Both the position numbers and the translations under genes were made by a program. Source: a virus (taxonomy: Duplodnaviria; Heunggongvirae; Uroviricota; Caudoviricetes). From it: 64,000 nucleotides of DNA. Positions 1 through 48,172 of this stretch are shown in pieces (within the stretch, counting starts at the first letter, position 1; the number at the start of each line of letters is the position of its first letter). The stretch covers positions 19,787 through 83,786 of the IMG/VR virus record IMGVR_UViG_3300027819_000007; one strand, written 5' to 3'. The notes below the pieces were generated by a model. The model saw only the letters and a program-made list of their open reading frames with translations. It was not told the origin of the DNA and did not search any database.

Positions 1-109
1 CACTCTTCCCCACCCCGCTCTTCCCCACCAAGACGGTAAGATGAGGATCAAACTCCACCCTGACATTGGAATGACACTGGAAGAACCGGAGGTGGAGCAA
101 TTCAAACAT
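1..109 (-). CDS. 5' fragment of an SbcC/Rad50 (gp46-like) ATPase, truncated by the window edge
   Basis: Manual translation from ATG at 109: MFELLHLRFFQCHSNVRVEFDPHLTVLVGKSGVGKS. This is a typical SMC-family N-terminus ending in Walker A. Not in the ORF track. Confidence 0.8.
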   Translation of the reverse strand, partial: MFELLHLRFFQCHSNVRVEFDPHLTVLVGKSGVGKS

Positions 110-345
110 TCTCAAGTTTCATTTCCGTTGGAACCAACAATTCATTCTACGATTTCAGTTCTATCATAGATTTCAATTCATTCTTGCTTCACACTTCTTT
201 CTTGTGCAACAATTCATTCAGCTATGCCATTTCCATCACACTCTTCAATTCATTCCGAGGGTACAATTCCATCGTTTACATCAACTCATTCGCATTTTAC
301 ATTTCTTTCGCTGTTAACAACTCATTCCAGTTCTGCATCTCCTTC
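102..345 (-). repeat. TIGR-like array 1 (36-nt period)
   Basis: Plus-strand CAAYTCATTC at 138, 174, 210, 246, 282, 318 (degenerate at 102). Alternating CAnTTYYWTC-like repeats at 120, 156, 192, 228, 264, 300, 336. 8-nt variable spacers. Confidence 0.9.
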
Positions 346-585
346 GTCGTACTCAACTTCACACTGGTCCACCAATCCAATCTCCACCCAACCACACAGG
401 AAGCACGACCACACCGGACCTTGCTCATTCCGAAGGGTATCCTGTTCACAGTTGGGGCAAATATCATTGCCAATACTGTCTTGGAGTCGGGACCACTCCA
501 GATATTCTTTTCCTGTTACTTGCTGGTCCCATTCATCTGGCCCAGGAGGTTGTTGGTCTAAAGTAGAATCACTCATTTGGATCAT
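322..585 (-). CDS. Small Zn-ribbon protein
   Basis: CPNC...CFLC motif with an acidic tail; flanked by arrays 1 and 2. Confidence 0.6.
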   Translation of the reverse strand: MIQMSDSTLDQQPPGPDEWDQQVTGKEYLEWSRLQDSIGNDICPNCEQDTLRNEQGPVWSCFLCGWVEIGLVDQCEVEYDEGDAELE

Positions 586-757
586 TTCCTTCTATGGGAA
601 CAATTCGTTCTTATGGATCACTTCCATCATTCCTGTCAACAATTCATTCACATCACTCAATTCATTCAATCCTATCACTTTCGTCCTACATCACAATTCA
701 TTCGGACTTCGCATTTCCCTCCGCGTCTTCAATTCATTCTGCGAGGTCACTTCCTTC
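583..757 (-). repeat. TIGR-like array 2
   Basis: Repeats at 583(B), 601(A), 619(B), 640(A), 658(A), 676(B), 694(A), 712(B), 730(A), 748(B). Confidence 0.85.
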
Positions 758-1396
758 TTGAACCTCAACTCTAACCTCACCTTGCTCCTCATACCACTTC
801 CTCATGATGTCGGGGCTAGTCCCATCCAAGAAATCCTTCAGTAGGAACCCATCTACCCATTGATCCTTCCCCAACCGCACGGTAAGTGAAGCATTCCCGT
901 CGAAGGGGAAAGTGGCTCCCCTACCAATCAGCTCTGCCGACAACTCTTCGGGAATGAATACCACAGCTTGTCGATGGTCTCGCTTCACAATCAGAATCCA
1001 TGAGAAACTTCCCGACTGCTGCTTGGCTTCCTCCTGCTTCTCAAACCATTCCTCGTAAAGAGTTTGCTTGGGTCTTGGTTTGTCAAGGATGTCAAAGGGG
1101 GTCTTGGAGGAGTAGCCCCTTTTTAACTCGATAGTGACAAACTTGGTAAGGGCAACGGCCTCTTTATCGGTAGCGGTAATATCCCCGTGATGACCTGTAG
1201 TAGCCTTACCCTTCCTTCCTCTTACTCTAGCCCTGGCCCCACTACCCGAACTACGCCACAGAAGGTCGTCCCGTAGTCCTCCAGACCACCATTTGGACAA
1301 GGTGCCACAAATGATTCTCTCAAAAGAGGAACCCTTACGTGGACCTTTACCCTTACCCTTACTCTTACTCTTCTTCTTAACGTCCTGTTTCACCAA
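734..1396 (-). CDS. Holliday junction resolvase-like PD-(D/E)XK nuclease
   Basis: KGSSFER...WRSSGSGA...GDI...IELKRGY motifs, typical of phage Hjc-like resolvases. Confidence 0.75.
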   Translation of the reverse strand: MVKQDVKKKSKSKGKGKGPRKGSSFERIICGTLSKWWSGGLRDDLLWRSSGSGARARVRGRKGKATTGHHGDITATDKEAVALTKFVTIELKRGYSSKTPFDILDKPRPKQTLYEEWFEKQEEAKQQSGSFSWILIVKRDHRQAVVFIPEELSAELIGRGATFPFDGNASLTVRLGKDQWVDGFLLKDFLDGTSPDIMRKWYEEQGEVRVEVQEGSDLAE

Positions 1397-1410
1397 TCAC
1401 TCCTTTGGAT

Positions 1411-1492
1411 TAATTCATTCCTGGTTCACACTTCCCTCACATACATCAATTCATTCACGGGCAACATTTCCATCGGAACAAGCAACTAAAAA
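1411..1492 (-). repeat. TIGR-like array 3 (short)
   Basis: Repeats at 1411(A), 1429(B), 1447(A), 1465(B), 1483(degenerate A); exact 18-nt spacing. Confidence 0.8.
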
Positions 1493-1585
1493 AGTGGGTG
1501 GGTGGAATCGCACCACCTCACGTCCTCTTCCTCTGCAATGAATTCCGAAATAACCCTGTGAACGTGAGCATCCTTGCCACCCACT
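1493..1585 (-). ncRNA. tRNA-like structured RNA (atypical)
   Basis: Minus strand: acceptor-like stem GTGGGTG/CACCCAC, T-arm GGTGG-TGCGATT-CCACC, central helix TCACGT/ACGTGA enclosing about 38 nt. No D-stem and no CCA. Confidence 0.5.
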
Positions 1586-1589
1586 CTTA

Positions 1590-2027
1590 CTATTTACCAT
1601 CCTTCTTAGAAGAGAAGGTCTCAGCCCACACCTGCAAGGCTTCAGCATGAAATTGACAAGTACGTGGGAAGGCTAAGGCTCCCCAAGTCCCGTCCCGTCT
1701 CTTTCGTCTAACTCCCGTATTCCAGCCAACCTTGATTTCGTCAATCTCCTCTCCGAAGTCATTGCTCCGTTGCACACAGAGCCAACAGCATCCAGGAGAG
1801 TCGAACCTTACGGAAGGCTGGGTGTTGGTATTGGGAATGACATGGGCGTCCTGTCGGGTCTCCACCAGAATCTGTTGAATGTAACTGGACTCCCTCACCA
1901 GACGTTGCTGTCGTAGTTCCTTGGTGGAAGTGGACTTGATTTGGTCTCCCAACTCAGCGAGTAACTGCTCGCATCGTTCCCTCATTTGCTGAAGGAACTG
2001 TTGGACTTTCTCACGCATCTCATTCAT
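1590..2027 (-). CDS. Hypothetical protein (N-terminal coiled coil)
   Basis: 145-aa ORF with an AGGA SD, co-directional with the operon. Confidence 0.6.
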   Translation of the reverse strand: MNEMREKVQQFLQQMRERCEQLLAELGDQIKSTSTKELRQQRLVRESSYIQQILVETRQDAHVIPNTNTQPSVRFDSPGCCWLCVQRSNDFGEEIDEIKVGWNTGVRRKRRDGTWGALAFPRTCQFHAEALQVWAETFSSKKDGK

Positions 2028-2048
2028 CGTAGAGGTTTCCTAAAAAGA

Positions 2049-2447
2049 GAACTCATTCAACCTTCACATTTCCATCCTACATCACAATTCATTCCAACGG
2101 GTCACTTCTATCAGGTATTTCACTTCATTCTTAACCTACGGTTCCATCGCGGTACACAATTCATTCAGAAGTAACAATTCCATCTGATGTTTGAACTCAT
2201 TATCATTTGTCATTTCCATCAACGAATTCAACTCCTTCTATAGAGACAATTCCATCATTCTTGACAAGTTGAAAAGGAGAGCAGAAGTTGTTCCCCATCC
2301 TTGCTCCTGCTCTCCCAACCGTTGCAATCCATTTCATTTTCCTCTGTCAGTTCCATCACAATTTACAATTCATTCGCCTTCGTCACTTCCATCAAAATTC
2401 TCAATTCATTCTTGGGAGTCACTTCCATCCAAAACCTCAACACACTT
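2049..2447 (-). repeat. TIGR-like array 4, two sub-arrays (2049-2256 and 2330-2447) split by a hairpin insert; directly downstream of the tas-like gene
   Basis: 12 half-units at exact 18-nt steps from 2049 to 2247, then 7 from 2330 to 2438. Confidence 0.9.
2276..2315 (-). terminator. Hairpin inside array 4 (terminator or processing stem)
   Basis: GGAGAGCAG (2276-2284) pairs with CTGCTCTCC (2307-2315); TTTT follows on the minus strand. The loop is large (22 nt). Confidence 0.45.
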
Positions 2448-3675
2448 TCCCTTCCTTCACCAGATTGAAAAAGGGTGGGCTTATGTAACCCGTGTGACCT
2501 CCGTGAGCCATGATGTAAGGAACCACTTCCGGAAGACCCAACAGATGTCTTCCGACAGTGTGCCAATGCGAAAAGAATATCTTGACAGCGTATCGAATGG
2601 CTCTACGGTCCAACCCCACATCCTGCAACTTGCCACTCTCCCAACATGCTTTCTGCTCAGGGCTAATCTTCGCTCTCCGTTGGAGACATTCCTCCAACAA
2701 CTCCTTGGCGGCAAACCGAAGTTTACCCGTGTTGTTCATCTCCGTCTCCAAGACTTTTCGTTGCTGGTACAGTCGGACGTACAAGCCACCCTCTCCACTA
2801 ATGGAAACCAGGTCATCCTGAATGGACTTCTTCTCCACAGGAATTCTCGTTTCCACCTGCTCGTCCGTCAACACTTTCTTGGAACGGGACTTGATGTAAT
2901 TACGGAAGTCATCGTCAGTCACCAAGGCAAGTCGTTCCTTACCCACGGTGGAACGTTTCCAGCAGCAACCCATTCTGTACCACTGAACTTTGAGGCGAAG
3001 GTTGTAGGGGCGTCTCATACCCTTCTCCCAAATCAGTTCCTTTTTGGGGAGCAGTCCCGCAAACTTGTAGATACGTCCTGCCGTTCTCAGTCCCAAACAA
3101 TCATGAGGAGGAATCTCCTTTCGATCACCACCCTTGAGATGGATCCAATTGGGACAACAACATCTTTGAAGGTCGATGTGAGCCAGGAACGCTGCCGTAC
3201 AGATGGGACCGACTCCCAGATTCATCATAGCCCAACGTCCCAAAGGTTGGGACTTGGCAAACTCCTTGAGACCTCGTTCGGCCTGCCCTTCCACCTTCTC
3301 CAGTTCGTTCTTGAGTGACGTAATGAGAACAGGATCCGACAGAATGTCCACATTCCGTTCGTGAGCACTCTCACGGTTTCTGGCTCCCATTCTCACCTTC
3401 TGAATACTTTCGTACAACCCTACCAATGCCAGGGCTTGTTCCCGTGTATACTGCTGAGCAGACTGGACCACATCACGGGGGAGAGACTTGACAGCAAGGC
3501 TAATCACCTCCGTCACTTCCCCGTTCTCATCCCCCTTACAGGAACCATTCGTGTGGACGGGAGGTTGTTCCTTCTTGGGACGTCCCCTCTTTTTGGCAGG
3601 GGGGACAGCTTCACCATTCCGTTTAGAAATGATAGACTTGGCGATTTCTTTGGCAACTTCGCGGGACTCGGACAT
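2437..3675 (-). CDS. Nop-domain / IS110-C-terminal-like protein, TasA-like (no evident nuclease)
   Basis: GVGPICTAAFLAHID, TAGRIYKFAGLLP, RRPYNLRLK, LYVRLYQQRK and RAIRYAVKIFFSH blocks resemble the Nop/IS110 Tnp fold, preceded by a coiled coil. No DEDD RuvC N-terminus. Flanked by 36-nt dual-repeat arrays. Confidence 0.8.
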   Translation of the reverse strand: MSESREVAKEIAKSIISKRNGEAVPPAKKRGRPKKEQPPVHTNGSCKGDENGEVTEVISLAVKSLPRDVVQSAQQYTREQALALVGLYESIQKVRMGARNRESAHERNVDILSDPVLITSLKNELEKVEGQAERGLKEFAKSQPLGRWAMMNLGVGPICTAAFLAHIDLQRCCCPNWIHLKGGDRKEIPPHDCLGLRTAGRIYKFAGLLPKKELIWEKGMRRPYNLRLKVQWYRMGCCWKRSTVGKERLALVTDDDFRNYIKSRSKKVLTDEQVETRIPVEKKSIQDDLVSISGEGGLYVRLYQQRKVLETEMNNTGKLRFAAKELLEECLQRRAKISPEQKACWESGKLQDVGLDRRAIRYAVKIFFSHWHTVGRHLLGLPEVVPYIMAHGGHTGYISPPFFNLVKEGKVC

Positions 3676-3735
3676 GGGATTCTCCTTGTGTTGGGATTCA
3701 CCGTTCGTCTAAACTACCACTACAGTCAAGTATTA

Positions 3736-3962
3736 GAATTCATTCTTGGTTCGAAATTCATTCTCCACGTACAATTCATTCTCAGCATACGCTTCCTTCA
3801 CACTTCTCAATTCATTCGGACCGTTCATTTCCAACTGGCAGGATCAACTCATTCGTAGGCCACACTTCTATCAGATGATTCAACTCATTCCAAGGAAACA
3901 CTTTTATCGCGTGCTTCAATTCACTCGCAACCCACACTTCCATCAACGACCTCAACTCATCC
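3736..3962 (-). repeat. TIGR-like array 5 (upstream of the tas-like gene)
   Basis: Repeats at 3736, 3754, 3772, 3790, 3808, 3826, 3845, 3863, 3881, 3899, 3917, 3935, 3953. Confidence 0.9.
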
Positions 3963-4466
3963 AACATACTTGAACTCCTCTCCCACCAGTAGATCGATCC
4001 TGGCTTGGTTGTGGATCTGGTGGAAGACTTCCTCACGCAGACTTCCACCCTTTTCTCCCTCTTTGAGTTTGGAAGCCACCAGTCTCATGAAACGCTCCTT
4101 CATGGCATTTCCTTCCTTGAAGGAACGGTAACGGTCAGCTTCCTGGAGAATTTGTTCACGAGTAGCGTCTTTCAAGAATCCTCCCGTCATCATGGGCCAG
4201 TAGAGATAGGTGAAACACTTCTCCACCACCACAGCTTGTTGTTCTTTGGGGAATGTCTTGGGAGTGATTGGCTGGTTGGCAATCTTCACACGGGCTTGAC
4301 GTTGTACTTCTCGAAGGGCTTCCGAAGCAGCCCAATGAAGGGCTTCAGACAAGAGACTTTCATCATCCATGATCAGAGTGAGGAGTTCGGAAGTGGCCTC
4401 CTCGCTGTAACCATCGTAGTTCTTGTAACAGTCCGTAGCCACTTTCATCAACTGCTCGTGAGACAT
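3957..4466 (-). CDS. Hypothetical helical protein, candidate Tas accessory
   Basis: 169-aa ORF between arrays 5 and 6, with a CACAAGGAGA leader. Confidence 0.6.
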   Translation of the reverse strand: MSHEQLMKVATDCYKNYDGYSEEATSELLTLIMDDESLLSEALHWAASEALREVQRQARVKIANQPITPKTFPKEQQAVVVEKCFTYLYWPMMTGGFLKDATREQILQEADRYRSFKEGNAMKERFMRLVASKLKEGEKGGSLREEVFHQIHNQARIDLLVGEEFKYVG

Positions 4467-4513
4467 GTGGTTCTCCTTGTGTTAAGTTTTGTTCACCCAG
4501 AACAGTATTACAT

Positions 4514-4631
4514 CAATTCATTCCAAAGAGTCACTTCCATCTCATGCATCAATTCATTCGTCTCCGTCAATTCTCTCATACCAGACAATTCATTCAGTCT
4601 TTTCACTTCCATCTCCATCGTCAACTCAACA
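4514..4631 (-). repeat. TIGR-like array 6
   Basis: Repeats at 4514, 4532, 4550, 4568, 4586, 4604, 4622. Confidence 0.85.
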
Positions 4632-5135
4632 CGAACACCCAAAAGGTACACTCTCTTTATCCTCAGAAGAGGCTTTGTGTCCTGTTACCAGTTCCCAACA
4701 TTCCCAGAACTTTTCTAAATTCACCTGATCCCCTTCTCTCTCATCTCGATAAGAAGAAAACAAATCCCTTGCTCGCTCCGATCCATGCTGAGTTAACCCA
4801 TACCCCTCTTTGATTACATGCCACCCTGCCTCGATCACCATTTCATAGGTGATGGGTTCCCACCGTTCTTCTCCTTCGTGATAGGTTCCTCCTTCATCAT
4901 AATAGTCTGTTCCATATCCCTCCACGCAGGTATCTCCACACCGAGAAGCAAACTCACGGAGCCAGTCCTCTGCTTCCTGCTTTTCCTTTGTCCATTTTCT
5001 TTGTGTGAGAGCCTCATCGTCTAGCCCACGTTCTTCCAGCCAATCCGAGTAGACCAAACGAAGTTCCCCATCATAACGATTGTCCTTAATCGCATCCAGA
5101 AACTTTTGTTTATCTTTCTCTTGATCGTGGTTCAT
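4626..5135 (-). CDS. TIGR02996-like domain protein
   Basis: FLDAIKDNRYDGELRLVYSDWLEERG; paralog of 5149-5577. Confidence 0.7.
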   Translation of the reverse strand: MNHDQEKDKQKFLDAIKDNRYDGELRLVYSDWLEERGLDDEALTQRKWTKEKQEAEDWLREFASRCGDTCVEGYGTDYYDEGGTYHEGEERWEPITYEMVIEAGWHVIKEGYGLTQHGSERARDLFSSYRDEREGDQVNLEKFWECWELVTGHKASSEDKESVPFGCSC

Positions 5136-5148
5136 AGTAACTTCTCAC

Positions 5149-5577
5149 TTAAATACAACACCCGAAAGGACTCTCCCGGTCCTCAACCTCACATCCTTCC
5201 AGAATGCTATAACATTGCCACAATTTCTCACGGAGGGGAGGATCATTAAATAAAGCATTGTCGGGACCAAACCCCATTCCCCGAAGACAAAACAACCTTC
5301 CATCTTTCTGATATTGACGGAGAGCATCCATGAGTTCGTCCACCGTAACATAACCTGTTCCATAAAAATCCCTATCTTCACTCACCACTACCCTGGCAAA
5401 GTTCTCCATCCAGTCAAAAGCTTCTTGCCATTCTTTACTCCATTTACGATGGAAGGCAGAGAGACTGTCCTGTCCCTGCTCCTCCAGGAAGTCGGCATAG
5501 ACACGATGAAGACATTCATCGTACCGATCTTCCTGGATGGCTTTCTCAAACTGTTTTTGGTCTTCCTCTTTACTCAT
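5149..5577 (-). CDS. TIGR02996-like domain protein
   Basis: FEKAIQEDRYDECLHRVYADFLEEQG; ends in PFGCC, like the neighbour's PFGCSC. Confidence 0.7.
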   Translation of the reverse strand: MSKEEDQKQFEKAIQEDRYDECLHRVYADFLEEQGQDSLSAFHRKWSKEWQEAFDWMENFARVVVSEDRDFYGTGYVTVDELMDALRQYQKDGRLFCLRGMGFGPDNALFNDPPLREKLWQCYSILEGCEVEDRESPFGCCI

Positions 5578-5891
5578 TTTGGATCACTTACAGGAACTTT
5601 AGCTTTGAATGCAGGATGCTGCCAAACGTGTCTTAGGTTAGTAACTGTATTTGGATACAGAAAAAGCCAAACCCTGGTTCCCTTTTCAGCCAAATCCTCC
5701 AAAAAGGGATCCACCACTCCAATCATGTCATTGGTATATTGTGTAGCCTCTCCATTCTCATTAAGTCCCACATGCTGTCCAGGACGTAAATGATAGTCGG
5801 CTACTAACACTGGAGCACATGCTATATGCACGGCATCTCTTCTGGCATCATGTTCTGGATGTTCTCCCAAGTTAGGGCGGTACTGCTCCAT
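5574..5891 (-). CDS. Hypothetical protein
   Basis: 105-aa ORF with a CAACACAAGGAGA leader. Confidence 0.6.
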   Translation of the reverse strand: MEQYRPNLGEHPEHDARRDAVHIACAPVLVADYHLRPGQHVGLNENGEATQYTNDMIGVVDPFLEDLAEKGTRVWLFLYPNTVTNLRHVWQHPAFKAKVPVSDPK

Positions 5892-5908
5892 TGGTTCTCC
5901 TTGTGTTG

Positions 5909-6134
5909 AAATTCATTCATGCAGGTCACTTCACTATGATCTCGCAATTCATTCTAAAGAAACACTTCCATCCCTATCATCAATCCACTCATCTTCAACA
6001 TTTCCCTCGTGCCACTCAACTCATTCGGCAACTTCACTTCTATCGCAGTAAACAATTCATTCGTAATGAACACTTATTTCTACCAGTTCAATTCATTCAC
6101 TTTCTACATTTCCATCGAGGGACACAACTAATAC
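5909..6134 (-). repeat. TIGR-like array 7
   Basis: 13 half-units at exact 18-nt steps from 5909 to 6125. Confidence 0.9.
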
Positions 6135-7315
6135 CTGCACTTCCGGTCTACCACACACGCTTCTTCGATTTCATTCCAAGTGGTGGCTACCAATTCTCGT
6201 AATATCCATTCAGTATTCCCCTCCTCGATCTTACCTACCAAGTTCTCTAACGTGCCGTTGTGGTCGAACTCCGGAGCATGAATCTTACTCCCATCCTTCT
6301 TCCAGTATTTGACATCGAGGAGATATTGGATGTTGCCACCAATGTCATCGATGCCAAACTTACGGTAAAAGGTGAGGGGGACATCTCCTACCCAACCCGT
6401 GAAGTGGTTCTTCACTACCTTGGCATTAAGGTTGGCTCCAATTTGGTAGTCCTGTCCCTTGACCGTTTTCTTGATCTTGCCACACACAGACATCCAGAAC
6501 TCAAGGCGTGAGTAAAACTTCAGTGCTCTTCCCCCACTCCGCGTCTTGGGATTGAACTTGGCTCCGAACCCTATGCTGTCCCGTGTTTGACTAATGGTCA
6601 CGAGGATGGACTTGGTCTCGTCCAGCAGGTTGCTAACTACTCTGATCTTGGAGGAGTTGAGCTTAGCTTTGGCCGTACCGTAAGAACCTGTGGACTCCTT
6701 ACCCTTCTCCCGTGCTGCTCGTTCCTCTTCCATCTTGTCTTCGTCTGCTTCTGGAATGAGAGAGTCCATACTGTCCAGGATGTAGACACACGACTTCTTC
6801 TTGAGTCTATCCTCAATGTATTCATAAAAGGATTCCAAGGATGAGGAGGAGGGGTCTTGTCCTTCCTCTCCAAGCAACTCAATCCTGTCCTCCAAACAAG
6901 AAAAGTAAGGGAGACATCCCGAAATGTTCCCATGCTCCACATTGTCATAAATAAGGTCATAGTCATCAAAGAACTTGTTCCGACACGCTTCGGCCAAGAA
7001 GGAGAGACAGCACCACGACTTGCCACTATCACTATCTCCTACCATGAGGACATACTTCCCTACAGGAAAGCCTACCTCCGGTCGTCCACTACAGGCTAGG
7101 TTCAGTAGGGTACTCCCCGTGGAAAGTCCCGGTCCTGTTACCAAGTCCTTTTTCTTCACCCCCAACTCTTTCACTTCCCGCTTCAAGGCTTCAAAGGCTT
7201 CACTCACAATCAATCCTCGAAAGAAAACCGGGGAGGAGCTTCCCCACCAGAGGTCACCCGCTCCCCGGCCACAAAGAGATTCAAAAAACTCCTGGCTGGT
7301 GTCTTCCATTACCAT
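6128..7315 (-). CDS. recA: RecA/UvsX-like recombinase
   Basis: LSTGSTLLNLA, GDSDSGKS Walker A, YILDSMDSL Walker B, GGRALKFYS. Confidence 0.9.
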   Translation of the reverse strand: MVMEDTSQEFFESLCGRGAGDLWWGSSSPVFFRGLIVSEAFEALKREVKELGVKKKDLVTGPGLSTGSTLLNLACSGRPEVGFPVGKYVLMVGDSDSGKSWCCLSFLAEACRNKFFDDYDLIYDNVEHGNISGCLPYFSCLEDRIELLGEEGQDPSSSSLESFYEYIEDRLKKKSCVYILDSMDSLIPEADEDKMEEERAAREKGKESTGSYGTAKAKLNSSKIRVVSNLLDETKSILVTISQTRDSIGFGAKFNPKTRSGGRALKFYSRLEFWMSVCGKIKKTVKGQDYQIGANLNAKVVKNHFTGWVGDVPLTFYRKFGIDDIGGNIQYLLDVKYWKKDGSKIHAPEFDHNGTLENLVGKIEEGNTEWILRELVATTWNEIEEACVVDRKCRY

Positions 7316-7364
7316 AGGAATAAGACTCCTTCATCCTTCCAGCCAGGAGCTATTCCAGCTAGGG

Positions 7365-7931
7365 TCAGGCAATCAACTTCCTTGCCCCGTCCTTGATGTC
7401 TCGAATCCTGGCCTTGAGGGTTTTGTTCTCCTCACGCAAAGCGGAGTTCTCCTGCTCCAGTCTCTCAATCTTTTGGATATCGGTCTCAATCCGATTGAGG
7501 ACTCGTTCGTAAGTCCTCTTCTGGGTATTGGGAGAGAACTGCTCAAACTCCGCCACGGTAGGGAGTTCGGCAACCTTCCTGGGAGTGGAATCCTTCTTCT
7601 TGGTTCCCTTGGTCTTCTGACTGTACTCAACCCACATCCGGGAAGGATTGAACTTGTGCCGTTGCCAGTCCTCCAACTTGGGAAAGTGATGAAGGAGTTC
7701 CAGGAGGTTGGTTAAAGAAACCAACCCACACAGGTCTCCAAAGCATTCCACCTCCAGTCGGTCTAAGGCTCGGTTCTCGTCACCCCCACCTCCAGCAGGG
7801 GATTCCACCCAGTCCTTGTCTTTGAGGAGGTTAGCGGCCAACTTCACTCGTTGATAGTGCTTCTCCCCTGCTTCGTTGCGAAGGGAAATCAATTCTGCAA
7901 ACATCTCAGTCCCGGTTGCTTTCTCACTCAT
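7365..7931 (-). CDS. Hypothetical protein with C-terminal coiled coil
   Basis: 188-aa ORF with heptads at the C-terminus. Confidence 0.6.
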   Translation of the reverse strand: MSEKATGTEMFAELISLRNEAGEKHYQRVKLAANLLKDKDWVESPAGGGGDENRALDRLEVECFGDLCGLVSLTNLLELLHHFPKLEDWQRHKFNPSRMWVEYSQKTKGTKKKDSTPRKVAELPTVAEFEQFSPNTQKRTYERVLNRIETDIQKIERLEQENSALREENKTLKARIRDIKDGARKLIA

Positions 7932-8347
7932 CTTCGGACCTTCTTTCTCTTTGTTGAAGTCTTGGTTCTGGGTTTACGTTTTGCCACAGGTTTTGATGGG
8001 GTTCCCTTACGGATCTTACGGGAAGGGGACAATAGTTGTATTTGCTTCTTCCCTTTGGGAGTAATTCGATATACTTCCGCAGAGTGGTTGGCCAAGGTTC
8101 TCCGTGTGATCTTGGCGTCTTCCACATATCCCATCCACTCAAGTTCCCACCGACTTCGAGTAGCATGAGTAGAACCACACCGCACTTTCATGGCTAACTC
8201 CTGGTGAGTTAGCCCTTGTCTTCCTGACTTGTGGAAAGCCTTCAGGAACTTGTGATGGTACTTGTAGAAGACAATCGGTCTCCGTACTGCTCCCCTGGTT
8301 GTAGAGGGATGGTACAGCTTCAAGGCTGAAGTTCCCACGATGCTCAT
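7928..8347 (-). CDS. Putative winged-helix DNA-binding protein
   Basis: GLTHQELAMKV...RSRWELEWMGYVED...YRIT pattern with a basic tail. Confidence 0.45.
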   Translation of the reverse strand: MSIVGTSALKLYHPSTTRGAVRRPIVFYKYHHKFLKAFHKSGRQGLTHQELAMKVRCGSTHATRSRWELEWMGYVEDAKITRRTLANHSAEVYRITPKGKKQIQLLSPSRKIRKGTPSKPVAKRKPRTKTSTKRKKVRR

Positions 8348-9429
8348 GATTGGAGTCCTTTCAACTTGTGAAGGACCATGATGGCATTGTCCACTCCCCC
8401 CACACTGGAAGCAAAGGCATGGGCATCATGCAGAGAAGTGATCAAGTTGTCCATGTCCAACGGGGGAGCTACCACGGGAAGAGTAGGAACAGGACTCTTC
8501 ACCTTCGTTCGTGTAGGAGTATGGGCAGAAGTTCTGGGAGCTTGGGGCTGCTTCCTGTAGTCCTGCATGTGGTCTTCGTAGTATTGAATCTTCTCGGACG
8601 TGAGAGGTCCTTCGATCCTGGCACGCAGGTCGGCCAGATGTTCCCTCACACTTCTTATGGTAAGTATCACTTTGAGCTTGTGACGATTGACCAACGTGCG
8701 GACCAGGACCAGGATTCGTTCATAGTCAATGGGTTTCTGGAGCTGTTCTGGAGTCATCTGCTTGAGAACTTGTCGAATCAGTTGGCTCATAGAAGGTTTC
8801 TTGCTCTTGACCTTCTTACGATGGGGGGCAGTAGCATTGATGGTATGAGCCTTGGTATTGTTCAGAAGCTGCTCATACTGCTCTACCTTCTCCCTAGTGA
8901 CTGGGGGGCCGAATCTCGACTTGATCTCGTGCCGTACCACACTCACATTCATGTGGCTCACAGAGAGAGGATTGTTGCAGTCCCGCAGGAGCTGCCGTGC
9001 CTCACACACCACTTTTTCCAAGTCGTCTTTGTTGCTACTGGTGAGGTCCAGTTCTCCTTGGTTGCTCAAGTTCTTCATGGCCTGACGCACGGCCTCAGAC
9101 CGAGTCTTGAGGAAAGGTACAGTTGGTTGAGGAACTTCCGTGTGAGGGGCTGCCTCTCCGTTCTTCCTTTGAACGATCACTTCCTGCTGCACCACTCCAG
9201 GGAGACGTTCGTATTGCTCCAGCTTGACACGGGTAATGGGAGTCCCGAACTTGGCTCGGATGTTTCCCAACACCGTACCGACAGAGGAATTGGTGATACT
9301 TTCTGCATCACCACCAGACTGCCTCATCCGTTCACGGGCAATCCGAACCACCTCATCGTGATCCAATCCATTGTCGATGTCCAATTCCTTGAGGGCTTCC
9401 CTGATCGCTTTGCTCTTCGTCAAACTCAT
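8344..9429 (-). CDS. Protein with three tandem ~80-aa helical repeats
   Basis: Repeated IR[EQ]ALK...KFG.PIT..KxEQYE blocks. Likely start at ATG 9429, after the leader motif. Confidence 0.65.
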   Translation of the reverse strand: MSLTKSKAIREALKELDIDNGLDHDEVVRIARERMRQSGGDAESITNSSVGTVLGNIRAKFGTPITRVKLEQYERLPGVVQQEVIVQRKNGEAAPHTEVPQPTVPFLKTRSEAVRQAMKNLSNQGELDLTSSNKDDLEKVVCEARQLLRDCNNPLSVSHMNVSVVRHEIKSRFGPPVTREKVEQYEQLLNNTKAHTINATAPHRKKVKSKKPSMSQLIRQVLKQMTPEQLQKPIDYERILVLVRTLVNRHKLKVILTIRSVREHLADLRARIEGPLTSEKIQYYEDHMQDYRKQPQAPRTSAHTPTRTKVKSPVPTLPVVAPPLDMDNLITSLHDAHAFASSVGGVDNAIMVLHKLKGLQS

Positions 9430-9518
9430 CGTTCTTCTCCTTGTGTTGAAGTTGGGTTGTGGTTTGTACCTCACTTATGGTATTACGTCAGTCTTCTTCT
9501 TCACTTCACATCCTGCAC

Positions 9519-9589
9519 TACGGGTAAGGAGAATCGAACTCCTGTTTTCTGGTTGGAGGCCAGATGTTCTACCATTGAACCATACCCGC
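9519..9589 (-). tRNA. tRNA-Gly (TCC)
   Basis: GCGGGTA acceptor, D-arm GTTCAATGGTAGAAC, anticodon arm TCTGG-CCTCCAA-CCAGA, T-arm GGAGTTCGATTCTCC. CCA is not encoded. Confidence 0.9.
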
Positions 9590-9683
9590 AAATCCTGGAG
9601 GGGAAGTGTTAGAACAGCCACTTCCAGACTTACCCAGAACGAGTCTTCATCCCATCCTGTAAGATGATCCTCCAGGAGAGAAA

Positions 9684-43339: not shown

Positions 43340-43427
43340 AGTCGTTCTCCTTGTGTTGTGGTTGAGGTTAAAGTTCCAATCCAAAAGGGTAGGGGAACAA
43401 CCCCTACCCTTAACATACTTTCCCTGC

Positions 43428-44090
43428 TCAGAAGGCGGCTCGAACCGCACTGACATCGTGTCCCCGTTCTTCCAACCAGTCGGCAAGCACACCAGCGGGG
43501 ATCTCGTCTTCCCGTGCTGCCAACTCCATCTCTGTCCCCTTGACCTGCTGCACCATGTCGGCGAACAGTTCGGCACGTCGGTGAGCACTCATCTGCAAGG
43601 CATCAGCCTTGGCCTTGGCTTCCACCAGGGGCAAGGAAGCAGGGTCGATGGCGAACACCTTGGCCGCACTTTCGATGTCCTTGAGCAGGTTATTGATCCG
43701 CTTCATGGTGGTTTTGATGTGCTTGTCGTGCTTGTCCTTGGCCCGTTCCAAGTCACTACCGTCACAGTCCGGGTCTTCCTTGACACTGACGAACTTCTCC
43801 CCACTGAGGTCCAGTGACTTCTCGGTCCGCTTCACTGCAGAACGAATTTCTTGACGAAGGCTATCTAGGGCCATCTCCGTCAATTTTTCGCTACCTTCTT
43901 CCGACTGGGGAACCAGGTGCCACCGCACTCCCTCTTCCCGCAACTCGTTCAGGTAGTTCCACGGCACCCGGTCTGTGGGGAGTACCCAGCAGGAGAGGTT
44001 GATCCTAATGGCTACCCTCCTAAGACGTGGGCTGGGGTTGGGAATTTGGCTTTTGGTGGGGACGTCGTAAATCAGCAGGTCAGTCTTCAT
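43428..44090 (-). CDS. Hypothetical early protein with C-terminal LADWLEERG motif
   Basis: Leader and promoter upstream. Confidence 0.65.
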   Translation of the reverse strand: MKTDLLIYDVPTKSQIPNPSPRLRRVAIRINLSCWVLPTDRVPWNYLNELREEGVRWHLVPQSEEGSEKLTEMALDSLRQEIRSAVKRTEKSLDLSGEKFVSVKEDPDCDGSDLERAKDKHDKHIKTTMKRINNLLKDIESAAKVFAIDPASLPLVEAKAKADALQMSAHRRAELFADMVQQVKGTEMELAAREDEIPAGVLADWLEERGHDVSAVRAAF

Positions 44091-44143
44091 CTTGGTTCTC
44101 CTTGTGTTTGGTTTTAAGTTCTTGGTTTCCTCCACACGTTATA

Positions 44144-44172
44144 AGTATATACTACGTTAACTGTCCTGTCAA
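44144..44172 (-). promoter_or_regulatory. Sigma70-like early promoter
   Basis: TTGACA-GGACAGTTAACGTAGTA-TATACT (17-nt spacer). Confidence 0.75.
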
Positions 44173-44200
44173 ATGAAATTGACCAGAATTGTGGAATATT

Positions 44201-44815
44201 TTACCCCTCGTTTTGATCCTTGTCTCGAGGAGACAGCACCTTCTGGTCAATGACCACGAACGGAGGTTCCATCCAACACCTGCCAGCCAGAAGGTGGAGA
44301 GCCTCCCTCATGCCCCCCAGAGAGGGGAAAGTAGGGTTCTCTTCCTTCTTCTGTCGGATGGTTTGAGCTAACACTTCCAACAGGGTAGCCAACTCAGCAG
44401 GAACAATTGACGTGTAGGAGAACTCCTCCGGAGCTTGGGGGGAGTAGGTGGACAGGGAGGTGACTCTTACCCTCAGTGCCTGGAGGATCTTGTCCACTAC
44501 GATCCGATTCTTCCGGATCCGACCAAAGCCTTCCGGAGCCATCAGGTAACCAGTATTGTCCGGATCGCCATTCTCGCTACGGTCCAACCATCCGTCACTC
44601 ACCATGCCCAGAAGGTATCTTCTAGCTATGTCCTTCCTGCCCCTTCTCATGGCATAGTCCAGGGACACTACCGTGCCGGACTGCCGTCTCCGAATCCGGT
44701 TGTAGTGACGAATTGCTTCCTCCGGGGTTACCAACTCGTTCATGTAGGAGGCCGCTTCCTCCAGGGTATGAATCCCTCCCCTGGAGAAGAGGGGGAGGAG
44801 TTGGTAACGAACCAT
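44201..44815 (-). CDS. Hypothetical protein
   Basis: Likely start MVRYQLL at 44815; the longer ORF-track call overlaps the ParB-like gene. Confidence 0.45.
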   Translation of the reverse strand: MVRYQLLPLFSRGGIHTLEEAASYMNELVTPEEAIRHYNRIRRRQSGTVVSLDYAMRRGRKDIARRYLLGMVSDGWLDRSENGDPDNTGYLMAPEGFGRIRKNRIVVDKILQALRVRVTSLSTYSPQAPEEFSYTSIVPAELATLLEVLAQTIRQKKEENPTFPSLGGMREALHLLAGRCWMEPPFVVIDQKVLSPRDKDQNEG

Positions 44816-44826
44816 CTTTTGATCGT

Positions 44827-45783
44827 TCACTTGGAGTCCCCCTTCCCTCGAAGGATCTTGGTCATCTGACGATCGATGACCGTCCAATACTCCACCACCT
44901 TCTCCACCTCTTCTGGGGGAATCTGCAACTGAGAGAAGGAAGTAGCTTCTTCCAACACTTTGCGGAGGGAGGTCATGTACGACAGGAACTTCCTTCTCAC
45001 CGAAGTGTTGAACGGAACCTTGACCGTTTCCTGGGGTTCGTGTCGGTCCTGGAAGATCTTCTCCCACCGTTCCACTTCGGCAATCCGTTGGGCTTCGGTT
45101 TCCTTCCGCTTCACGTCATTGATCACTGCTTTCGCATCGTCCCCCACCACTTCGTACTTCTTCAGGAAGCGGGTAATCTCCCGTAGGACGTTGACACTCT
45201 CTTGTAAGGGGGAGAGCATGACCAGGGTGGTTCGAGTAAACCCATTGGGATTGACTCCCTGCTCCTGGATCTTCTTGGACACCAAAACGGCTCGCATGTG
45301 TTGGCTGATCCACTCATACTTCAACCCCAACAACTTCCCCGCGTCCTTCACATCCATGCGGTGGGTTTCAATCAAATGCTGAGCATTGAGGAGCAGTTCC
45401 TCACGGGTCGGTCTGTGTCCTTCCCAAGCATTGACGATACGTGGGAGAATGTCACTGAGCCGAGGGTCGGTGATGGAAACCGCATAGGCTTCCAAGGTGG
45501 TCTCCCCCACGAGGTGAGCCGCCCTCACCCGATGGTTCCCCGACCAGATGAACACGAAGTTCTTGAGCTTGTTGAGGATGGGCATGGGAAACGCAGCTCC
45601 TGGTTGCTGCATCCCCTCAGCATACTCCAGTACCCAATCATCGTTGATCTTCTTGCCTAGCCGCACTTGTCGGTTGGCACTTTCCTCCAGATCGATGTTC
45701 TTGATCTCGAAGGTGAGCACCTCGAAGGTGATACCCAACCGCTTGAGGTGATGCTCAACCCTTTGATCTTTGATCCACTTCAT
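44827..45783 (-). CDS. ParB-like N-terminal domain protein
   Basis: FPMPIL...IWSGNHRVRAA, followed by an HTH-like DAGKLLGLKYEWISQH. Confidence 0.7.
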   Translation of the reverse strand: MKWIKDQRVEHHLKRLGITFEVLTFEIKNIDLEESANRQVRLGKKINDDWVLEYAEGMQQPGAAFPMPILNKLKNFVFIWSGNHRVRAAHLVGETTLEAYAVSITDPRLSDILPRIVNAWEGHRPTREELLLNAQHLIETHRMDVKDAGKLLGLKYEWISQHMRAVLVSKKIQEQGVNPNGFTRTTLVMLSPLQESVNVLREITRFLKKYEVVGDDAKAVINDVKRKETEAQRIAEVERWEKIFQDRHEPQETVKVPFNTSVRRKFLSYMTSLRKVLEEATSFSQLQIPPEEVEKVVEYWTVIDRQMTKILRGKGDSK

Positions 45784-45816
45784 CTTGGTTCTCCTTGTGT
45801 TGAAGTAACGGTTGCT

Positions 45817-46269
45817 CTACCAGTTGCCACCTTGACAACTGAGTTCTCCGAACTGACACACGCCACACAACCTGGTCTGCTTCACCACGGGCTTGTCCCC
45901 GCAGGACGTACACTCACAATCCCAATCCTGCACTGCCTCCTCAACCTTCTTGGTGGTGGTATTGAAGAAGGTTCTGTGCTTAACCTGCTTCTTGGTCACG
46001 ACGGATTGGGGAATGAATACCATACAACCATTCGGATAGTAGGTTGCGAAATACACATCCTTCCTTTTGAATAGCTGGTAATGCCCCTTGACGAGGTAAA
46101 CCTCTTTGCTTTCAACTCTGAATTGGTTTTTGACCACCTTCATGGCATTGCCTGTGGTAGCAGAAGGGAACTGCCTGACTGGAACATACCCTACTGGGGC
46201 ATGTTTCATACAAGCCTCCACGAGCAGAGGATGGTCTAGCTTGCCTGCGGTAACTGCATGGTTCTGCAT
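45817..46269 (-). CDS. Hypothetical protein with C-terminal Zn ribbon
   Basis: CTSC...CGVC; leader motif upstream. Confidence 0.55.
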   Translation of the reverse strand: MQNHAVTAGKLDHPLLVEACMKHAPVGYVPVRQFPSATTGNAMKVVKNQFRVESKEVYLVKGHYQLFKRKDVYFATYYPNGCMVFIPQSVVTKKQVKHRTFFNTTTKKVEEAVQDWDCECTSCGDKPVVKQTRLCGVCQFGELSCQGGNW

Positions 46270-46320
46270 GGGTGGTTCTCCTTGTGTTGGAAACGGATAG
46301 GCTACCACAATAGTATTATT

Positions 46321-46560
46321 CTACATCCTGCGAATTTGCAGGGGACTCACCAATTCTTCCAAGGGAGCAATCCCTTGCAGGGAAGCCAACTGGACCTTAT
46401 CCTTGACGTAACGGTAAAAGCGTAATGCTTCCCCGTGGATGTCAGACCAGACTGCTTCCCCCTTGCGATAAGGACACCACTGCAAAGACTCGTCGTTGGC
46501 TAGCTCTTCTACAGTGAACTGACGTTTTTTCTCCTTGAGGGGTTTCTTCTTTTTCTTCAT
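46321..46560 (-). CDS. Small basic hypothetical protein
   Basis: ORF track. Confidence 0.45.
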   Translation of the reverse strand: MKKKKKPLKEKKRQFTVEELANDESLQWCPYRKGEAVWSDIHGEALRFYRYVKDKVQLASLQGIAPLEELVSPLQIRRM

Positions 46561-46571
46561 GAGTAGTTCTC

Positions 46572-46880
46572 CTAGAATGGTAGGAAGAAGTTGTCGTACA
46601 ACGGCCCATCGAAAATGGCATCGAGGAAGTTATACAAATCGAGGACTCCTCCCCCACGTTCAGTGGCCAAATCCTCGGCTTCTGATCCTGAAACGAGTTC
46701 ACTCTGTTCCATATCATTTAGGGAAGCAGCAGCCTGCTCAAGAAGGGGAGCATTACTGGGCCACACCCATTGTGAACGAGGCCTCATTCTTATGTCGCTG
46801 TCAAAAGCCAAGTCTTCGATCATGGTTGTCAAGATCGGGTAGTGAACAAGCTTCCGACCTCTTTCGTCAAATTTCACCAT
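46572..46880 (-). CDS. Hypothetical protein
   Basis: ORF track, GGAG SD. Confidence 0.5.
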   Translation of the reverse strand: MVKFDERGRKLVHYPILTTMIEDLAFDSDIRMRPRSQWVWPSNAPLLEQAAASLNDMEQSELVSGSEAEDLATERGGGVLDLYNFLDAIFDGPLYDNFFLPF

Positions 46881-46906
46881 TAGAATGCTCCTTTAGAGTA
46901 AGAGAA

Positions 46907-46929
46907 GGGAGGGGAATAGTTCCCCTCCC
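46907..46929 (-). terminator. Hairpin terminator candidate
   Basis: GGGAGGGGAA-TAG-TTCCCCTCCC, a perfect 10-bp stem downstream of 46960-48099. Confidence 0.55.
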
Positions 46930-46959
46930 ATGTAAACTACCCAATTCCTCCACGGAAGA

Positions 46960-48099
46960 CTAGCCCACCACGGAGAAGTTCCCTTCCGCGTCCTTGACGA
47001 ACTTCCCCTTCTTCACCCAGTAGTTGCAGTGGGTCCGCACGCGGGCTTCATCCACTCCACAAGCCGTTGCGATGGTGACCACGGACTGAGGAGTGGAGGA
47101 GAGAATGGCATTGATCTTGGCAGGAACTCCACCTTCGCGAGAACCGGAACTCTGACGAACCTTCTTTTCTTTCATCTCGCGAGGTTGACTCATCGAATCC
47201 GTTTTCACCTGCAACAGATGCAGTTTAGCTCGTTCGGCTTCCTTGAGTCGCTTGACAGCGTTGGTCTCAACCCCCTTGCGGCGGTGATACTTCACCACAC
47301 TGTCGAAAGCCACTTCGAGGGACTTCATGTCATTCTGGATGATCTGGTCTTCAGAAGCTTCGGCGGCAATCTTGGCGATGGACACGAACCGGGCATTCTC
47401 CCCCTTGATGCGAACCACGGTATACGTACCACAGGCGGTCCGCCACACTTCATGTTCTGCACCATCACCCAGACTGGACTTCTCAGTGACCGAAGCCAAC
47501 CACACCAGTTCCCGTGCTACCGTGTTGGTATCCACCCGTTCCAGGGATGCCTGCTGGGCTTCGGCAATCCGTTGGGGAGTGGCATCTTCCGGGACCAAAC
47601 CCTGCTCGGCCAGGAACTTGGCCCAGTCTTCCTGACCGTTGAGATCCATGGCCTGGCGACCGTGCCGCCACAACACCTCATTCAGCCGTTGCTGGATCTC
47701 CTCTTCACTCTGAGGGATGGTAGGGGCCAAAATTCCGTGTTTCTGTTTCCTGGCTTCCTCCAGCTTCTTGTCATAGTCGGCCAGTTGACCCTTCATAGAA
47801 GGAGTGACCTGCATCTCCCGTTCCAACTTGGGGTGCAGGGACAGGAAGTGGTCGAACACCGTGCCTTCGATACGGATGGAAGAAGCGTACTGCTCCAGGG
47901 TTTCCACGTCACTCGGTTGGGTGGGGGCTTCGTCCTGCTGGATGGCTTCGGTCTGGGTAGGGGTTTCGTCCTGCACTTCCTGTTGGGGCTTTGGCTCTTC
48001 AACCAAAGGGGTCTCGGTGATCGGAACTAGCTTACCGTTGACCTTGGACTTGCTCTTCTGGGCTTTTCGCTGGGTCTTCTTGGTCTTGGTAGTGCTCAT
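46960..48099 (-). CDS. Early protein with C-terminal winged-HTH
   Basis: GGVPAKINAIL...VTIATACGVDEARVRTHCNYW; leader and promoter upstream. Confidence 0.65.
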   Translation of the reverse strand: MSTTKTKKTQRKAQKSKSKVNGKLVPITETPLVEEPKPQQEVQDETPTQTEAIQQDEAPTQPSDVETLEQYASSIRIEGTVFDHFLSLHPKLEREMQVTPSMKGQLADYDKKLEEARKQKHGILAPTIPQSEEEIQQRLNEVLWRHGRQAMDLNGQEDWAKFLAEQGLVPEDATPQRIAEAQQASLERVDTNTVARELVWLASVTEKSSLGDGAEHEVWRTACGTYTVVRIKGENARFVSIAKIAAEASEDQIIQNDMKSLEVAFDSVVKYHRRKGVETNAVKRLKEAERAKLHLLQVKTDSMSQPREMKEKKVRQSSGSREGGVPAKINAILSSTPQSVVTIATACGVDEARVRTHCNYWVKKGKFVKDAEGNFSVVG

Positions 48100-48172
48100 A
48101 CTTTCGTTCTCCTTGTGTTGGGTTGAGATTTCTTTGGCTCAGGGACCAGTTCCCCTCGCCTCGTACATATTA

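Follow-up and report, generated by a model that had tools for sequence, protein, structure and literature searches.

A TasA with a probable zinc knuckle, a helical insert and a putative AT-hook, encoded among TIGR mini-arrays in a phage genome

TIGR-Tas proteins are compact, RNA-guided DNA binders that are free of a protospacer adjacent motif and are already under development as tools. Within the family, TasA is defined by having a coiled coil and a Nop domain only, and it binds 36-nt RNAs (PMC12045711). MbTasA binds its target DNA without cleavage and represses transcription reversibly (bioRxiv 10.64898/2026.09.09.750476), and for PlTasA a structure in complex with DNA is available (bioRxiv 10.64898/2026.08.11.744272). 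Here we describe a gene, tasA, on the minus strand (2437..3675) of a 64,000-nt stretch of the 163,635-bp genome of a large uncultivated phage (positions 19,787 to 83,786 of IMG/VR virus record IMGVR_UViG_3300027819_000007; this whole stretch is referred to below as the window, and coordinates refer to it). The 412-aa product is a bona fide TasA, a DNA-nuclease-free member of the TIGR-Tas family of RNA-guided DNA-binding proteins. Taking the locus as a whole, we consider it probable that tasA supplies the effector protein for a TIGR-Tas system of the dual-repeat type, carried by the 163.6-kb phage genome.

Three described TasAs, FpTasA of Flavonifractor plautii (dual-repeat guides) and MbTasA and PlTasA (stem-loop guides), have the same architecture of coiled coil and Nop domain with no nuclease domain. 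They likewise have arrays of dual-spacer guides and a disordered N-terminus, and RNA-guided DNA binding without cleavage is expected here by homology. The phage protein differs in its length, 412 aa against ~265-300 aa in compact relatives, adding a CCHC insert, a 55-aa helical insert and an AT-hook, and in having its guides dispersed over eight small intergenic arrays, where the known TasAs have one or two long ones. The best structural match is SpTasH of Salicola phage CGphi29 (PDB 9W03, 9W04, 21KL), which also has 36-nt units with 8+8-nt spacers, in arrays on the sense strand. SpTasH carries an N-terminal HNH domain (residues 1-65) and cuts DNA, whereas our protein has a disordered tail at that place; its array repeats end in CCA rather than UG, and neither of the two inserts is present in it. 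TaTasR (PDB 9MTY) shares the coiled-coil and Nop core and a C-terminal HGGH-x-x-YI-x-PP motif, but has an N-terminal RuvC domain (residues 1-110), spacers of 9 nt, and a Trp where our protein has Y387. More remote are Nop5, Nop56 and Nop58 of box C/D small nucleolar ribonucleoproteins, which according to the literature (PMC12045711) have in common the Nop fold, coiled-coil dimerisation and the logic of dual-guide RNAs; the protein described here has no fibrillarin-binding N-terminal domain, is phage-borne, and by homology would target DNA rather than RNA.

A first-pass annotation of the window had proposed a TasA-like protein encoded at 2437-3675, and the open reading frame (ORF) was confirmed exactly, with the strong ribosome-binding site AAGGAG 7 nt upstream of its ATG. 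No significant domain, and no nuclease domain, was found in a Pfam scan of the product, while residues 67-401 match phrog_4285 in PHROGs (E 1.1e-20), whose label is 'transposase'. Searched as a single sequence against those of the PDB, the product matched 9mty_A, a TIGR-TasR structure (3.7e-9), and TasH (3.5e-5). A profile built from 60 relatives, which also served for conservation and modelling (motif counts were taken over 186 sampled relatives), gave TasR 9mty (E 1.5e-36), TasH (2.5e-23), IS621 (5.7e-6) and ISCro4 (3.4e-5), and no other PDB match. Homologues amount to 1498 cluster representatives at E<=0.001, and since the Cys/His ligands described below are kept across homologues as well, the ORF and its features are not due to chance. 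A tblastn search of 50,697 isolated phage genomes with TasA gave no match at E 1e-5, and no second tas gene was found in the 163,635-bp genome.

An AlphaFold2 (AF2) model was built on the 60 relatives and compared with known structures by Foldseek and VIA-align. It has a mean predicted local distance difference test score (pLDDT) of 89 and a predicted template modelling score of 0.82. The ten top Foldseek matches are all TasH or TasR chains, with probability 1.00. In VIA-align, TasH aligns with Z 19.8 (221 residues, root-mean-square deviation 2.6, chain 66-309) and TasR with Z 18.1 (chain 111-322). These alignments are carried by model residues 75-406 and leave out the HNH and RuvC domains of TasH and TasR, respectively; the structured part of the protein therefore consists of a coiled coil and a Nop domain alone, as TasA is defined (PMC12045711). 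The order along the chain, on the evidence of the ORF, PHROG 4285, the family profile, the AF2 model and VIA-align, is a disordered tail, the coiled coil and the Nop-type C-terminal domain. The coiled-coil hairpin (residues 67-142; 3250..3477, minus strand) has helices 78-106 and 116-142 aligned to the coiled coil of TasH and TasR; it is the dimerisation element of Tas proteins, and by homology TasA would form a homodimer through it. No Nop5 chain was among the best 50 matches listed in either structure search. The comparison with Tas and IS110 structures that the first-pass annotation had recommended, run with the AF2 monomer, thus puts TasH and TasR first, with IS621 and ISCro4 weaker. The family assignment itself holds on three counts: a fold matching TasH and TasR, 36-nt dual-repeat TIGR arrays abutting the gene, and the absent N-terminal nuclease domain.

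IS621 and ISCro4, bridge-RNA recombinases of the IS110 family, are the next-best structural matches (Z 12.8-12.9, chain 125-320) and share with TasA a homologous RNA-binding domain in which both the G-x-G-P helix-hairpin and the FAGL motif occur. The gene could on this basis be a degenerate remnant of an IS110-family transposase with no guide-RNA function, as the 'transposase' label of PHROG 4285 and the matches of some relatives to Pfam PF02371 (the IS110 C-terminal domain) might also suggest. We regard this as extremely improbable, since TasH and TasR match far better, the gene is a single copy embedded in TIGR arrays, and residues are strongly conserved across the 1498 cluster representatives. 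Nor are the catalytic parts of such an enzyme present. The DEDD RuvC-like domain of the IS110 family was not found by Pfam or in the AF2 model, to which IS621 aligns only over the chain segment given above, and the single bridge RNA is absent too. The profile alignment to IS621 stops at FAGLTPR, chain residue 239, just before Ser241, which we take to be the catalytic serine of IS621. At the FAGL-x-P site TasA reads FAGLLPKKELIWEKGMRRPYN, with no Ser in the 15 residues after FAGLLP, where the missing IS110 serine had indeed been noted.

The N-terminal nuclease domains of the other Tas proteins are equally absent, the TasH alignment starting at residue 65-66 and the TasR alignment at residue 111. 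What precedes is a tail of residues 1-66 (3478..3675, minus strand), mostly disordered by pLDDT, Pfam and composition. Block-mean pLDDT over residues 1-60 is 43-62, the sole helix (2-17) is short and of low confidence, and the tail holds just one His and one Cys; it is too featureless for an HNH or RuvC domain. The lack of RuvC DEDD and HNH motifs noted in the first-pass annotation therefore stands, with no nuclease in Pfam, a disordered tail, and structure alignments that begin past those domains.

The term 'nuclease-less' used there is right for DNA but not for RNA. According to PMC13421893, which cites Yang et al. (Mol Cell 2026), SpTasH cleaves its own pre-tigRNA with Y289 and H296. These two residues align without gaps to Y387 and H394 of TasA, in a C-terminal loop (2473..2529, minus strand), and H394 is invariant in the 60 relatives. 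Because this dyad is kept, TasA, while no DNA nuclease, probably serves as the ribonuclease that processes its own guides.

The guides themselves are evident as repeats around tasA. The pattern CAATTCATTC-N8-CACTTCCATC has 31 matches with at most three mismatches, against 0.01 expected, and the full set comprises 35 units of 10+8+10+8 nt in strict 36-nt register. The repeats are conserved (in gene sense, GAAUGAAUUG for the edge and GAUGGAAGUG for the loop) and the 8-nt spacers are variable, at about 0-0.2 bits per position. The units form eight intergenic mini-arrays of 2-7 units within window positions 102-6128, each ending in a truncated edge repeat (cf. Faure et al.); none was found in the rest of the 163,635-bp genome. 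The mini-arrays, all on the minus strand, fill successive gaps of one minus-strand gene string that runs from a RecA/UvsX-like gene to an 87-aa ORF (322-585). The array upstream of tasA (3736..3960) starts right at the stop codon of the gene ahead of it and leaves ~60 nt to the tasA start, and an array of three units (2330..2441) begins at the tasA stop, its truncated edge repeat overlapping the stop codon (2437-2439). It is followed by an array of six units (2049..2268) and, within 102..1486, by three more (102-357, 601-769 and 1411-1486) interleaved with the 87-aa ORF and a PDDEXK gene (734-1396). On the other side, within 4514..6128, lie arrays at 4514-4625 and at 5909-6128, of which the second comes immediately after the RecA/UvsX-like gene. 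In all, the stop codon of the upstream gene marks the start of two arrays, and three stop a few bases short of the ribosome-binding-site leader that belongs to the next gene.

Relatives keep this interleaved layout. The edge repeat, GAATGAAYTG on the tasA sense strand here, is nearly the same and on the same strand in four related loci, while the loop repeat differs in each; all repeats start with GA and nearly all end in UG. The TasH array of Salicola phage CGphi29 is also on the sense strand.

The 8-nt spacer CTACATCA occurs twice (686-693 and 2077-2084), in units that start at 658 and 2049 and belong to different mini-arrays, which hints at duplication of a unit between arrays. The partner spacers of the two units, AATCCTAT and AACCTTCA, are similar but not identical.

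The leader is a 15-nt sequence, AACACAAGGAGAAYC, that precedes eight minus-strand start codons (8 matches versus 0.06 expected), at 3678-3692, 4469-4483 and 5893-5907 and then at five genes within 43343-48119. We considered it as a TIGR-specific leader and rejected that, since those five genes at 43-48 kb are free of arrays. Not being restricted to array-adjacent genes, it looks like a phage-wide motif of translation initiation or one proximal to late promoters.

From these parts a mechanism can be proposed. Two TasA protomers would dimerise through the coiled coil, and a long minus-strand transcript would carry the mini-arrays, each unit being bound by TasA via the conserved repeat ends (GA...UG). 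Y387/H394 would cut the precursor inside the edge repeat GAAUGAAUUG to yield 36-nt tigRNAs, and in each tigRNA the two 8-nt spacers would base-pair with a 16-bp DNA site, one on either strand. With no HNH or RuvC domain, the complex would bind and bend this DNA without cutting it, and its presence there would keep the target, which may be host DNA or that of a rival element, from being transcribed or replicated. The first-pass annotation had likewise suggested a programmable binder or silencer rather than a cutter, in agreement with what is reported for other TasAs (bioRxiv 10.64898/2026.09.09.750476, 10.64898/2026.08.11.744272) and, for this one, expected by homology.

Several points weigh against this reading. 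Targets of the 35 spacer pairs within the 163.6-kb genome, sought in either opposite-strand layout, allowing gaps of 0-8 nt and at most three mismatches, were no commoner than those of the controls (direct-orientation and shuffled pairs). No signal above controls appeared either when 97 spacer pairs from the four related loci were searched against this genome, or when the spacers of this phage were searched against six loci (the four related and two more distant). A scan of positions 1-9600 for promoters and terminators gave counts equal to those in shuffled sequence, so that the bounds of the transcript are not defined by such signals. The characterised repressors, MbTasA and PlTasA, use stem-loop and not dual-repeat guides. 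In many close relatives, as in TaTasR, Trp stands in place of Y387, and self-processing may therefore not extend to the whole clade. Finally, RNA, DNA and zinc binding of this TasA are predictions.

The sole perfect self-match in the target search (unit at 174, 3-nt gap, genome position 8657) was set aside; ~0.05 such matches are expected over all tests, and a 3-nt gap is not a known geometry. In public collections of 596 Gb, a 16-mer would by our estimate turn up hundreds of times through chance.

The arrangement of the arrays allows another use of the putative ribonuclease. If TasA cuts at edge repeats, the operon mRNA would be cut too, and the arrays in eight gaps of one operon could then serve mainly as TasA cleavage sites that trim a polycistronic mRNA, DNA targeting being secondary or absent. 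The arrays do occupy gaps between consecutive minus-strand genes, with two starting at upstream stop codons and three stopping just before downstream leaders. Promoters and terminators between the genes are not above background, the Y/H dyad is retained, and the interleaved layout recurs in relatives. However, one edge repeat would suffice for cleavage, and variable spacers between conserved repeats are the signature of diversifying guides rather than of mere cleavage sites. The DNA-prying residues are also conserved (below), and the leader motif is found at five array-free genes as well. We therefore think it very unlikely that RNA processing is the main role, and prefer that of a guide-directed DNA binder.

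Two inserts set this TasA apart from its compact relatives. Insert 1 (residues 172-196; 3088..3162, minus strand) takes the place of an 8-residue loop of compact relatives and is modelled with a local pLDDT of ~92-94. It contains C172, C174, H191 and C193, and the motif C-x-C-x2-[YWF]-x(8-28)-H-x(1,3)-C-x-G-[LIV] is found in 29/186 relatives with the four ligands fixed and linkers of 8-28 residues. Fixed ligands with variable linkers are the hallmark of a zinc knuckle, so that insert 1, which had been flagged as a Cys/His-rich insertion within the Nop-like domain, is a probable CCHC zinc knuckle, as judged from translation, motif conservation and pLDDT. It directly precedes R197, which aligns with K167 of SpTasH, a residue near the tigRNA ends (PMC13421893).

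Insert 2 (residues 243-297; 2785..2949, minus strand), previously estimated at ~55 aa and exactly that long, stands where compact relatives have ~10 residues, right after helix alpha4. The AF2 model gives it helices at 246-249, 254-264 and 271-293. It follows Y233/R241, the aromatic and basic pair on helix alpha4 that aligns with W203/K211 of SpTasH, and the latter stabilise the DNA-unwinding junction (bioRxiv 10.64898/2026.08.11.744272). The 'hairpin C' of PlTasA, which we infer is probably the 'insertion 1' of Xu et al., also projects from helix alpha4 toward the unwinding junction (bioRxiv 10.64898/2026.08.11.744272).

To follow the inserts among relatives we used a quick maximum-likelihood tree. 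It splits 26 compact TasAs from a clade of 34 members (Shimodaira-Hasegawa-like approximate likelihood ratio test support 99) that holds all insert-bearing sequences, although resolution inside the latter is poor. Both inserts are present in 21 of the 34 members, insert 2 only in four, the Cys/His insert only in two, and neither in seven. A compact TasA outside this clade, P0077, has an unrelated Cys-rich insertion of 38 residues at the insert 1 loop.

The putative AT-hook KKRGRPKK, which the first-pass annotation had reported near the N-terminus, is read directly at residues 28-35 (3571..3594, minus strand), within the disordered tail (pLDDT <50 in the surrounding segment). It fits the R-G-R-P core with basic flanks. 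The Pfam AT_hook model (PF02178) matches residues 28-37 below threshold (10.1 bits versus a cut-off of 17.4, E 0.84), as is usual for a motif of 13 residues. Clean RGRP hooks occur in 3/186 relatives, N-terminal in P0001 and P0076 and C-terminal in P0014; the hook is a sporadic yet recurrent appendage.

The C-terminus of P0014 is RKRGRPKK and the N-terminus of P0076 is KRRGRPPK; these hooks and the Cys-rich insertion of P0077 look like similar add-ons gained independently.

The most likely effect of the probable zinc knuckle, helical insert and AT-hook would be to add contacts to the guide RNA or flanking DNA. Neither 'zinc' nor 'AT-hook' is mentioned in the Zhang-laboratory TIGR papers, nor 'zinc' in the SpTasH paper, and the CCHC insert, the 55-aa helical insert and the AT-hook go without mention in these TIGR papers; a literature search on TasA, tigRNA and zinc returned only a general review. 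RNA-guided binding and silencing without cutting is already shown for other TasAs in the 2026 preprints, and in that respect this TasA is largely expected. What may be new is the presence of clade-specific zinc-knuckle and helical inserts and an AT-hook in a dual-repeat TasA. A sizeable clade of dual-repeat TasAs then departs from the compact picture of the family, with a probable zinc module at the loop facing the guide-RNA ends and a 55-aa arm at the unwinding helix. Should these modules make DNA or RNA contacts stronger, they would be natural examples of how the affinity of a nuclease-free Tas binder is tuned. As long as no target is known, the biological gain stays limited.

The neighbours of tasA include a RecA/UvsX-like recombinase and a PDDEXK nuclease, and RecA_N and PDDEXK_15 genes are nearby in 5/5 loci examined (the window and four relatives). 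Between arrays upstream of tasA is a gene for a 169-aa helical protein (3957..4466, minus strand), with homologues of ~170 aa and 27-33% identity in the four related loci (L001:9041-9562, L003:4294-4800, L006:4053-4571 and L007:5603-6115). The order in those loci is RecA, array, ~170-aa gene, array, tasA, array, with few small intervening genes or none. The 169-aa protein has no Pfam or PHROG match and its profile no PDB match; its Atlas neighbours are unnamed viral clusters, and its best structural Z of 5.8 amounts to noise for a protein made of helices. The gene may encode a Tas accessory of this lineage or be no more than syntenic.

Such neighbours raise the question of whether TasA is a targeting adaptor, the guide-loaded dimer recruiting an effector (the 169-aa protein, the RecA/UvsX-like protein or the PDDEXK nuclease) for cleavage, recombination or another reaction. 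The ~170-aa homologue is between RecA and tasA, beside arrays, in 5/5 loci despite Tas identities of 40-50%, and the RecA_N and PDDEXK_15 genes are as constant. The two inserts and the tail offer extra surfaces that are possible docking sites, and conserved TasA-ParB operons provide a precedent for a partner (Faure et al., PMC12045711). Yet neither RecA nor the ~170-aa family is present in more distant TasA loci, so the shared order may only reflect related phage backbones; SpTasH is located among head genes, and no family or fold match of the 169-aa protein points to an enzyme. On balance we consider an adaptor role, which the first-pass annotation had offered as an alternative, unlikely.

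A broader version would make the insert-bearing clade a distinct TIGR subtype that does more than block sterically, either recruiting the ~170-aa partner or recombination machinery to guide-specified sites or linking the processing of guides with the maturation of the phage's operon mRNA. It would draw on the zinc knuckle at the guide ends, the helical arm at the unwinding helix and the occasional AT-hooks, together with the split arrays, the nearby RecA and PDDEXK genes and the enclosed ~170-aa protein seen in five loci. We give this a small chance of being correct, and keep to the guide-directed binder described above.

Some minor features of these loci remain to be recorded. Two small minus-strand genes between arrays, 4626-5135 and 5149-5577, carry a (R)LVY-x-DWLEE-x-G module; they sit between RecA and the 169-aa gene here and not in the relatives. 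In the window, a tRNA-Gly gene (9518-9590, minus strand) shares the strand of the first array and precedes it by ~3.4 kb, and in the related 187-kb contig L001 a tRNA-Val gene (L001:8673-8744) lies between two TIGR mini-arrays. The RecA-like gene of another related locus (L007:3118-5277) encodes 719 aa and has a LAGLIDADG match, which suggests that it contains an intein.

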